Of a DNA stretch of 15,995 nucleotides, positions 12,001 to 15,000 are shown in pieces. Source of the DNA: a virus (Duplodnaviria; Heunggongvirae; Uroviricota; Caudoviricetes). The stretch lies in the IMG/VR virus record IMGVR_UViG_2531839661_000011; one strand, 5' to 3'. Each line of letters starts with the position of its first letter. Position 1 is the stretch's first letter. A program made the position numbers.

Positions 12001-15000
12001 GAAAGAGGCCCACACCGATCCGCAGCGAGAGCATATAGCCCGACGGCGGGAAATATGCCTTGCGAACTTCAGGATGCTGTAAATAAGACTGTTGACGATA
12101 TGGGAATCAGACGGGATCGGCGACATTACGGGTTATGGAAATAACAGCCAGGTAAATTGGTGAATATACGGCAGGCTGCAATCAGAGCCGAACATAGCGG
12201 CCTCTGTCACCATTATCAGACAGTAGCGGTAGTCCTTCCATCACAGCAAAATGCTACCCACTTCACAGCCCCTTAGAAGCCTCTTCGATGGGGTGAAAAA
12301 TCCCTGAAAAAATGCGCAAAAAACTGCGCAAATCGATCATAAAACCGATCACAAAATCGATCACACAGACCAGCAGAGAAAAGCCAGGTATGACGCGGCT
12401 TGCAGGGGGGAAAGGCCACCGGAAAAAGTGCGCATTTTTCTCAAAAACGAAACGCAACAGGAAGCGCAAAACGAAACCGATACGCGATGATCGAAAAAGC
12501 GCGCAAATTTACCGGATTCGGGTAAGCAATTTTGCCTGATTTGGGCAAAATACGGTGTCGCCGTAACAGTGACATTGACACCAAAACAGTGACACACAGG
12601 AGGGCCGATGACCGAACGTTCACCAACAGAGATAATTCACGGGATTATTGAAGAGCAGGAGGAACGCGAGTTAATCCTCATGATTGAAGAGCAGAGAGAA
12701 CACCAGCGCAAACAGGAGGCCACGCTGCCAGAAAGCGTGAGCGCTGAAAATCAGGCTGATGTGCCGTGATGGTGTCGAACTGAGTAACTTAAAGTCACTC
12801 TGTGACCAGTTTTAAACGAGTTGCAAAAAGAGCCGGAGAAAAACCACGAATCTGGGGTTTTTACTGGCGCGGTGTACACGGTGGAACGCACAGCGTTACC
12901 TGACTTATTGCATTGTAAAAAGTTAGAAAGGCACGGCCTGTAAGATGGGATGTTGTGAGTAGTTTAAAGCTACCCGCAAATTCTTTCGTTGTGCTGGCAC
13001 AGGCGGTTAAACCGTCGGTAACTGGATAATCCCCATTGGGGGAAAAGCTGGCTACACCCCTCACATCTGAGGACTGATAACGCAAAATTGCGTTGGCTGG
13101 CAGAGTGCAAATTTGCACGATGGCCTAACCCATTGATTCTTTCGAAAACCCCCATTGGGGGAGAACGGGGGAATAAACCTGACTCATTGATTCTTCCACA
13201 ATCCTCAATTTGAGGAAGTCGGCGCGGTAACTCACTGAGATTAAAGCAAAGCTCAAATCTGAGATGGCTACATCTCTCACATCTGAGGACTGTTAACCAG
13301 CAAGCCGGAATATATTCACAAACTACGAAATTTTCGTAGTTTAACTTTCATCCAGTACATCCCCGAAAACACGGGTATGTACGGAGTTACCGTTACCAAT
13401 AATTATTCGCGAGGTGATTGTTGATGCGTGATATTCAGCAGGTTCTGGAACGCTGGGGAGCGTGGGCGGCAAATAATCGCGAGAATGTGACCTGGTCATC
13501 CGTTGCTGCCGGATTTAAGGGGATTATTCCGCCAAAGATAACATCTCGTCCGCAGTGCTGTGACGATGATGCGATGGTGATATGCGGGTGCATAGCCCGC
13601 CTTTACCGGAACAATCGCGATCTGCATGACTTGCTGGTTGATTACTACGTGCTGGGGAAAACGTTTATGGCGCTGGCACGTAAGCATGGATGCTCTGATG
13701 GACATATCGGAAAGCGGCTACAGAAAGCGGAAGGGGTTGTTGAAGGCATGCTGATGATGCTGGATGTGAAGCTGGAGATGGATCGGTATGTTGAGCGCGA
13801 TTCAGTGACGGCATAACGCGCATAGAAAACCGCAGTCATGAGGAAACTGCGGTGGAGAAATACGGCTTGCCAATCAATCATGAAAAACGTAATCGCCTGA
13901 TAATTATGCCACGAGACAAAGGACGGTGCACCCTGAATGGTCATAATGACCACTCAGACCATCAAGGCAACTATAACGAACATCGTTACAGTTGGAGCTT
14001 TTACCCCGTTGGGGAAAAGGTATTACGATAATGATGATACCTTTAGCAAAGCGTGAATCATCATTACGGTAGGGATGGTCATAATGACCACACCTCCCCC
14101 CCCCACCGGAACAGGGAGGATGACCTACGAAAATTTCGTAAGTCCTACCCCGCACAAGGATTAAATAATCACTACAAGCGATTGATTAAACTTAATTATC
14201 GCGAATCGCGAGAATTAGCCCCGCAGAAACAAGGAAAGAAGAATTTTACGAAAATTTCGTAAAATCCCCCCACATCTCCCACGGTTGCCCGTTAAGTGCA
14301 AGCGCACAGGCACGACCTCATTAACCAGTTACCAGCGCTCACGCTCAAATATCCACAGGAACGGGGCTAAATCGCATTCTGGCGCAATGTTCACTGTCAG
14401 GGCGAGTATTCACCAGAAAACGTCATACAGGCTTACAGTCGGCTTAAAATTCGATAGGCGGATAACAGGGCGTGGATTGGGAGGCTTACGAAAATTTCGT
14501 AACCCCCTACACAAAAGTGCAGGTTACTACCCGAAAAGTGTAGTGCCATTGCTGGGGGCTAAAAAAAACCGCAGTGTGATAACACTACGGCACGCCACCA
14601 AAGAAACATAACAAGGAATCAGCAATGAGTAATACCTGTAAGCCTTCGGGGTGATTGTAACACATGAGCAATATTTTACCGGAAGCTGTTTTTCACTGGA
14701 TCACGTATCGTTATGGGGATTCCCATATCGGAGAGCATCCACCAGCTTCATAACGGATAACCGAAAAATGATAACGGTTAACCTGGAAAAAATTCCGGTG
14801 AATATTTGCCCTGACAGTTTCCATATCGGCGGCACACCTTAAAAAACCGTGTACACAAGGGTGTACACAATCAAAATCGTCATTACAGAAATCCCAGCAA
14901 TGACGCTCCTTTGATGCAGATACTCAATGAGCAGATTCAACATTGAATAACTCGTAACGCCAATTCTTACTTTTCAGCCTTCACAAATGCCGCCCACTCA

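Follow-up and report, generated by a model that had tools for sequence, protein, structure and literature searches.

The stretch studied here, the IMG/VR virus record IMGVR_UViG_2531839661_000011 (Caudoviricetes; 15,995 nucleotides, referred to as the window), holds an integrative island, and the region between its Q antiterminator gene and its right attachment site (attR) carries three hairpins with the shape of leftward intrinsic terminators: T1 (13825-13853), T2 (14561-14590) and T3 (14841-14871). We favour, with moderate confidence, a joint reading: T2 ends a plausible antisense small RNA (sRNA), T1, a boundary terminator, has decayed, and the T3 repeats serve as paired arm-type sites for the integrase. 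The terminator quality of T2, its strand-specific conservation and the promoter-like motifs associated with it are read directly from the sequences compared, and from them we infer that an RNA is produced and has a role. If real, this RNA would add an uncharacterised antisense sRNA to an island present in about 2% of complete Escherichia coli genomes, whose observed carriers include O157:H7, O103, O111 and O145 strains, among them O103:H2 12009, O145:H28 RM12581, O157:H7 F6667 and E32511. Other products encoded by the island are PerC-like regulators, a Q antiterminator and an RNA chaperone with a FinO domain.

Leftward hairpins and the T2 block

An earlier sequence-only reading of the window held that the three sites begin on the plus strand with an A-run followed by CC, at 13825, 14561 and 14841, and that they have the shape of terminators on the minus strand only; both statements are correct. 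The sequences are GAAAACCGCAGT at 13825-13836 (T1), A8 at 14561-14568 followed by CCGCAGT (T2) and A6CCGTGTAC at 14841-14852 (T3), and each folds on the minus strand into a hairpin followed by a U-run, with no T-run after any of them on the plus strand. When both strands of the 16 kb window were scored with a d'Aubenton-Carafa-type function (d), T2 was the top site on either strand, with d=30.2. T1 reached d=-1.2, its tail being UUUUCUAUG, and T3, which was missed by a standard terminator scan that called T1 and T2, reached d=-2.3. By this function a genuine terminator, that of yicC (14988-15012), obtains d=-4.6. Three sites with d>=-2.5 were observed in the 1.2 kb region, where first-order Markov simulations (150 runs) led us to expect 0.08 per strand; since none of the 150 simulations gave at least three such sites, and none a site with d>=10, the three-site observation is real and beyond chance.

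T2 has a stem of 9-10 bp, a loop of 4 nt (UAUC) and a U8 tract, and it scores d = 25-33 in all relatives. Two stem substitutions distinguish its haplotypes; read on the minus strand they leave a G·U wobble, whereas the plus strand would have a C·A mismatch. The hairpin together with its U-tract is conserved in the relatives for T1 and T2, but not for T3. Around T2, a conserved block (14561-14633) extends from the A-run, so that the module boundary falls exactly at the T2 U-tract, to just past ATGAGTAAT, its flanks on both sides being unrelated between island types. It occurs in two haplotypes, that of the window and that of a tRNA-Gly island (L006, L033). Among 5426 complete E. coli genomes, 109 have it, and a viral scan, a metagenome scan and 62 satellite loci with a ProQ homologue returned only recombinants of these two. 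The 22 Q loci fetched from other species had no DNA downstream of Q in common with the window and were useless for covariation. Judged by its fold and its conservation, T2 is probably a functional leftward intrinsic terminator.

Two further observations touch this site. An 11-mer, AAAACCGCAGT, covering the A-run and the 5' stem arm, is common to T1 (13826-13836) and T2 (14565-14575), which suggests a shared origin or a favoured terminator design. In addition, a 26-nt inverted repeat with 88% complementarity (14393-14418 and 14793-14818) brackets T2, the small open reading frames (ORFs) beside it and one of the palindromes described below (copy 3), its left arm being absent in two relatives (L030, L032).

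The candidate antisense RNA and its proposed promoter

Upstream of T2 on the minus strand, the sequence-only reading had placed an extended -10 at 14654-14662 and had predicted an sRNA of about 86 nt, antisense to an AAGGAA-N6-ATG mini-ORF (14625-14654) and next to a second MSN-initiated ORF (14664-14753). All of these elements are present at those positions, and the RNA stands as a credible candidate, given the G·U pairs possible only on the minus strand, the module boundary at the U-tract and an extended -10 at a similar distance in the second haplotype; the proposed promoter lacks a good -35. The candidate cis-antisense sRNA would occupy 14561-14647 (minus strand), with 73 conserved nucleotides at its 3' side (14561-14633) and about 14 variable ones at its 5' end. 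The proposed promoter is TGTTACAAT (minus strand; the plus strand reads ATTGTAACA), about 86 nt upstream of the T2 U-tract, and in the L006 haplotype TGATAAAAT lies about 80 nt upstream of the U-tract, in otherwise unrelated sequence. The pattern TGNTANNNT has 18 matches in 32 kb (both strands), TGTTACAAT among them, and by our own estimate its chance per 30-nt slot is roughly 2%. Most likely, an sRNA of about 80-90 nt would start at this extended -10 and end at T2.

The mini-ORF on the opposite strand (plus, 14625-14654) encodes MSNTCKPSG* and is preceded by the Shine-Dalgarno sequence AAGGAA (14613-14618), six bases separating the latter from the ATG at 14625. By this geometry the predicted RNA, running from 14647 to 14561, spans both the Shine-Dalgarno sequence and the ATG, to which it would be perfectly antisense. 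The L006 haplotype retains the Shine-Dalgarno sequence and ATGAGTAAT through three changes (AAGGAAT to AAGAGGT), and in L030 and L031 both changes within the 9-codon ORF are synonymous. The second ATGAGCAAT ORF, MSN-initiated and of 29 codons (14664-14753, plus strand), is of doubtful coding status, as synonymous and non-synonymous changes are mixed in it and an unrelated 25-codon ORF takes its place in L006. The overlapped ORFs thus have 9, 25 or 29 codons, are non-hydrophobic and unrelated between haplotypes, and their peptides have no family match. Because the peptides after the start are unrelated and without a family, the T2 block is read as a cis-antisense pair of which the RNA side is the better supported, and a plausible antisense RNA of about 86 nt would either block translation or destabilise rightward transcripts toward attR, which in the excised circle would run on to int. 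At gathering thresholds, Rfam models matched the whole window only at two C4 antisense RNAs elsewhere in it; at E<=10, the matches in 13400-15300 were noise, and the predicted sRNA had none. An exact-complement search likewise gave no complementarity between the candidate and the Q mRNA.

Cis-antisense RNAs that cover translation start regions include FinP, acting on traJ with FinO, SymR on symE and Sok on hok. The T2 candidate resembles them, as it would overlap the Shine-Dalgarno sequence and start codon of an opposite small ORF and has a strong terminator; a promoter of its own is proposed, an extended -10 being present in both haplotypes. Moreover, the island encodes a ProQ/FinO-domain protein, a parallel to the FinO system. 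However, the targets of those RNAs are a conserved toxin or regulator, whereas the ORFs overlapped by T2 are not toxin-like and differ between haplotypes. The FinP/FinO parallel is also weakened by the other satellites with a ProQ/FinO homologue, 61 of 62 of which lack the T2 block. A bolder proposal is that the T2 RNA founds a satellite-borne sRNA type with a conserved 3' scaffold (the anti-Shine-Dalgarno stretch plus the terminator) and an exchangeable 5' end, which, partnered by the island ProQ/FinO-domain protein as FinP is by FinO, could control rightward transcription across attP into int, hence excision or transfer, and whose UUCCUU might also act on mRNAs of the Shiga toxin-producing E. 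coli (STEC) host; this is a speculation to which we give little credence.

Probable arm-type sites, the Q boundary and the interval between T1 and T2

The claim that T3 ends a transcription unit gave way to another explanation. In elements of the lambda and P4 types, the arm-type sites of attP are short tandem or inverted repeats on both sides of the core, near int, and they are specific to the integrase. T3 consists of A6 followed by the tandem GTGTACAC-AAGG-GTGTACAC, that is, of two direct repeats, and it owes its stem (8 bp, 4 G-C pairs, 2-nt spacer, U6) solely to the self-complementarity of the 8-mer GTGTACAC. The tandem pair (14849-14868) lies about 60 bp from the crossover core. At the left attachment site (attL), GTGTACCC-AAAG-GTGTACCC is accompanied by an inverted GGGTACAC just before the int start (together L001 2125-2176, between core and int), and GTGTACMC has nine matches in L001 against 1.0 expected, with tandem pairs, 12-bp spacing and copies in both att arms. 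The same layout recurs with other sequences in sister islands: the tRNA-Gly island, which has another integrase, carries the motif GTGTATAG at both ends, where a hairpin is impossible and no A-run is present, and L005 has a tandem GGTGTAGT at the position equivalent to T3. In L042, which is about 72% identical and has the same core, the tandem GTGTACAC/GTGAACCC is kept, but the stem complementarity and the A-run are lost.

The repeats are therefore found on both arms and near int, their sequence varying with the integrase type and their layout remaining constant. Since this layout recurs at attL and in sister islands, and L042 keeps the repeats without hairpin or A-run, T3 is best explained as two putative integrase arm-type sites of the attP arm, its terminator shape being probably incidental. 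Like the sites of lambda and P4, these are 8-bp repeats, tandem and inverted, that flank the core next to int; they differ from the usual ones in that the T3 8-mer is palindromic and follows A6, mimicking a leftward terminator. Where an integrative element ends, what looks like a terminator, a hairpin beside an A-run, can thus be an integrase site pair, and terminator calls at such ends should be checked against the opposite att arm and against sister elements.

Regarding T1, this minus-strand site (13825-13853) is convergent with the Q antiterminator gene (13418-13816, plus strand; Pfam PF06530, E=1e-51) and begins 9 nt past its stop codon. In the window the stem is of terminator grade, with a U-tract reduced to UUUU-C-U. 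In three relatives (L002, L006, L031) T1 has U7-U8 and d=20.5-29.6, and the stem substitutions of L002 and L031 can form G·U pairs on the minus strand only. Between T2 and T1, a leftward ORF of 124 codons is present in L006 and L031, and T1 is the first good leftward terminator beyond it; in these sister islands T1, tail-to-tail with Q, would close a leftward accessory region holding that minus-strand ORF. By this comparison, T1 belongs to a real terminator family that would protect Q against convergent transcripts arising in a variable accessory region, and in the window, where the accessory cargo is absent and the U-tract decayed, it appears as a weak terminator. The proposal that T1 defines a small transcription unit is not supported, as the copy is decayed and a sigma-70 scan found no credible minus-strand promoter for a unit ending there.

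As described for lambdoid prophages, the PR'-qut-tR' unit (6S RNA, StxS; PMC7547250) yields an RNA running rightward from a promoter right after Q to a plus-strand terminator. The proposed arrangement in the window is similar in placing a short RNA unit beside Q; however, the motif is missing from the window and the terminators face the opposite way. Among the 19 homologous Q loci from prophages of other species examined for a downstream motif (L008-L028), all 19 have TTTACG(TA/AT)CGTAAA (TTTACGTACGTAAA) after Q, mostly within about 45 nt, and the majority also show a readable -10 and plus-strand terminator beyond it. This PR'/Q-binding motif was not found in the window, nor were the -10 and the plus-strand terminator after Q (13817-13935). 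As the island Q thus lacks a late promoter, its action would have to be in trans, perhaps exclusively so, on a helper prophage. With the PR' motif gone, the lambdoid frame of PR' and convergent sRNAs, on which the sequence-only picture drew, falls too.

The interval of 700 bp between T1 and T2 had been described as an ORF-free block of leftward RNAs, a description that cannot be kept, because it holds palindromes and a likely plus-strand ORF. Downstream of Q, three copies of TACGAAAATTTCGTA (TACGAAA(A/T)TTTCGTA), each reading (C/T)TACGAAAATTTCGTAA, lie at 14125-14141 (copy 1), 14246-14262 (copy 2) and 14486-14502 (copy 3). A fourth copy, flipped, is found at about 13322-13340, some 100 bp upstream of Q, where it overlaps a promoter-like site (TTCACA, 16 nt, TAGTTT). 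As a capsid/terS island beside phoQ has this palindrome too (L005 3398-3412), its copies are likely protein-binding operators. A role as promoters or Q-binding elements was rejected on reading the sequence, since no -10 follows on either strand, although the half-sites resemble the PR' motif. In L030 and L032, the segment 14142-14486, that is, the DNA between two palindrome copies, is deleted, which is consistent with recombination between them.

The small ORF of this interval (39 codons, MVIMTTQTIKATITNIVTVGAFTPLG..., 13937-14056, plus strand) bears third-position substitutions: in its first 36 nt, seven of the eight variable columns are third codon positions. Its start overlaps another palindrome, TGGTCATAATGACCA, present a second time at 14075-14091, together with a second copy of the start at 14075; in O157 two compensatory changes leave this palindrome intact. 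Seven database proteins match this ORF, which gene callers seldom call; it has no Shine-Dalgarno sequence and its C-terminal part is not kept in frame. On these substitutions, 13937-14056 is a probable small plus-strand ORF. Neither the small ORFs of 13850-14850 nor the 124-codon ORF of the sister islands had a significant Pfam, PHROG or PADLOC match, the sole match being a marginal one (E=0.0024) of an O157 68-codon ORF to a PHROG family of unassigned function.

The 110-bp module around the 39-codon ORF matches E. coli genomes well beyond the island family, such as the ends of the phoQ-adjacent capsid/terminase islands. A C9 run at 14096-14104, inside a second MVIMTT-initiated reading frame, is shortened to C7 in the O157 variant, while L006 reads TTCCCCC there; it may be a slippage-prone tract. 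The segment 13933-14042 was considered as a cosN site and rejected: a lambda-like cosN (GGGCGGCGACCTCGCGG) is present at L005 2944-2968 (minus strand), in the capsid/terS (Nu1-like) island next to phoQ of O157:H7, elsewhere in that sequence, and none was found in the window.

Competing explanations and the island context

Some points weigh against the joint reading. There is no good -35 at 14654-14662, which scores below 7 in a sigma-70 position-weight scan, and structure of the T2 RNA past the terminator hairpin is unsupported (z=-1.6). The support for the sRNA is in silico only, the strain covered by differential RNA sequencing (dRNA-seq) and by Term-seq, Sakai, being without the island. Everything searched yielded two T2 haplotypes, so that covariation amounts to two substitutions, and the kept Shine-Dalgarno sequence and ATG and the synonymous changes fit plus-strand selection equally well. 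T3, with its U6 and stable stem, has a possible second role as a terminator, one that is not conserved. It could also be argued that the T2 block serves chiefly to start translation of small ORFs on the plus strand, and that its hairpin and U8 are a one-way insulator against stray leftward transcription from the att end, with no discrete functional sRNA. The retention of the Shine-Dalgarno sequence and ATGAGTAAT and the synonymous changes of the 9-codon ORF agree with this, as does a promoter without a -35; in L006 and L031, moreover, T2 lies just upstream of the leftward ORF, as expected of an insulator or attenuator. However, the downstream peptides of 9-29 codons are unrelated between haplotypes and belong to no family, the extended -10 is equally distant in both haplotypes, and no leftward gene or promoter is known to the right of T2, dinD being rightward, which leaves the insulator unlikely, although the strongest of the rivals.

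In the model of the sequence-only reading, the three hairpins end separate leftward non-coding RNA units that form a cluster converging on Q and controlling Q or the induction of the island. The model draws on the three minus-strand sites against 0.08 expected, on the position of T1 directly after the Q stop codon and on the sRNAs that lambdoid prophages of enterohaemorrhagic E. coli (EHEC) carry convergent to the Q/PR' direction (PMC4104026). We consider it improbable, as T3 is accounted for by arm-type sites and not conserved as a terminator, T1 is decayed in the window, no convincing minus-strand promoters lie between T1 and T2, and palindromes that are likely operators occupy that interval along with a plus-strand ORF whose early substitutions are at third positions. 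Furthermore, the Q mRNA offers no complementary stretch to the candidate sRNA, only position links the elements to Q, and RM12581 keeps the T2 block with no Q annotated nearby. Far less probable still is that the hairpins arose by chance in a non-coding arm rich in A and in repeats, with no RNA function. A generic terminator scan did give 25 terminator-like sites against 17 expected in shuffles, 20 of the 25 on the minus strand, where the composition favours T-runs; but neither a score like that of T2 nor a set of three sites arose in any simulation, all relatives keep T1 and T2 with high scores, and the stem substitutions preserve pairing. Taken with these comparisons, the joint reading, with its separate roles for T1, T2 and T3, is the one retained.

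As described by Tree et al. (2014; PMC4104026), the Hfq-bound sRNAs of the EHEC lambdoid prophages (the anti-sRNAs AgvB, AsxR and EcOnc03) are convergent and located downstream of Q/PR'. The T2 candidate is similar to them in being short, leftward against the direction of Q, ended by an intrinsic terminator and carried by an EHEC/STEC mobile element, and in having a conserved 3' part and a variable 5' end. However, the anti-sRNAs measure 51-60 nt against about 86 nt for the candidate, and their shared 3' sequence of about 42 nt (GUAUCUCAUGC...UUGCCCGAACCCAYUCGGGC-U run) is not in it. They are convergent to PR' at a moron site of a lambdoid prophage, whereas the window is a non-lambdoid island with no PR' after Q. 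The sequences of AgvB, AsxR and EcOnc03 (Tree 2014 supplement) had no similarity in 14561-14650 or in the rest of the region, and membership of the T2 RNA in this group fails on both sequence and context. HnrS was also discarded as the T2 RNA, since it resides in Sakai prophages and Sakai has no island at this site.

The window matches at 99.7% an island of about 15 kb that STEC and bovine E. coli carry, flanked by yicC and dinD. Because the island sits between these genes and O157:H7 Sakai, from which it is absent, has an empty site, the comparison indicates that the element is an integrative, satellite-like island inserted in the yicC 3' end, and the T1/T2/T3 region, by the same comparison, is its non-coding right arm, from Q to attR. 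The empty Sakai site, attL (L001) and attR together define the crossover core GAGCAGATTCAA, at 14929-14940 in attR, inside the original yicC 3' end, where the island stops. At attL (L001 1990-2080), the last codons of yicC are swapped by the island (...QNIE* to ...QNVE*), which also provides a new plus-strand terminator for yicC; at attR (window 14941-15125), the old yicC 3' end remains, with the yicC terminator (14988-15012) and the dinD LexA box (15110-15125) to the right of the core. The flanking host gene dinD is oriented rightward, and the 1.34 kb from Q to dinD has no annotated gene. No literature was found on the yicC-dinD island or on an sRNA in it, and a tRNA search of the window found none.

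The island begins with the integrase, followed by helix-turn-helix (HTH) and Rha regulators and a GIY-YIG nuclease, then Icd-like genes, a primase and a single-stranded DNA-binding protein (SSB), and finally the ProQ/FinO-domain protein, three PerC-like genes and the PF06530 Q antiterminator. The Icd-like genes hold the two full-length C4 antisense RNAs (Rfam RF01695; 5335-5422 and 5815-5903, plus strand, 69 and 73 bits), which point to a P1/P4-type immunity RNA in the island. Further leftward terminators are located at 12313-12330 (minus strand, d=8.6) and 6824-6843 (minus strand, d=11.8), against the nearly all rightward genes of the island; the former is kept in RM12581, and both may mark other antisense RNAs.

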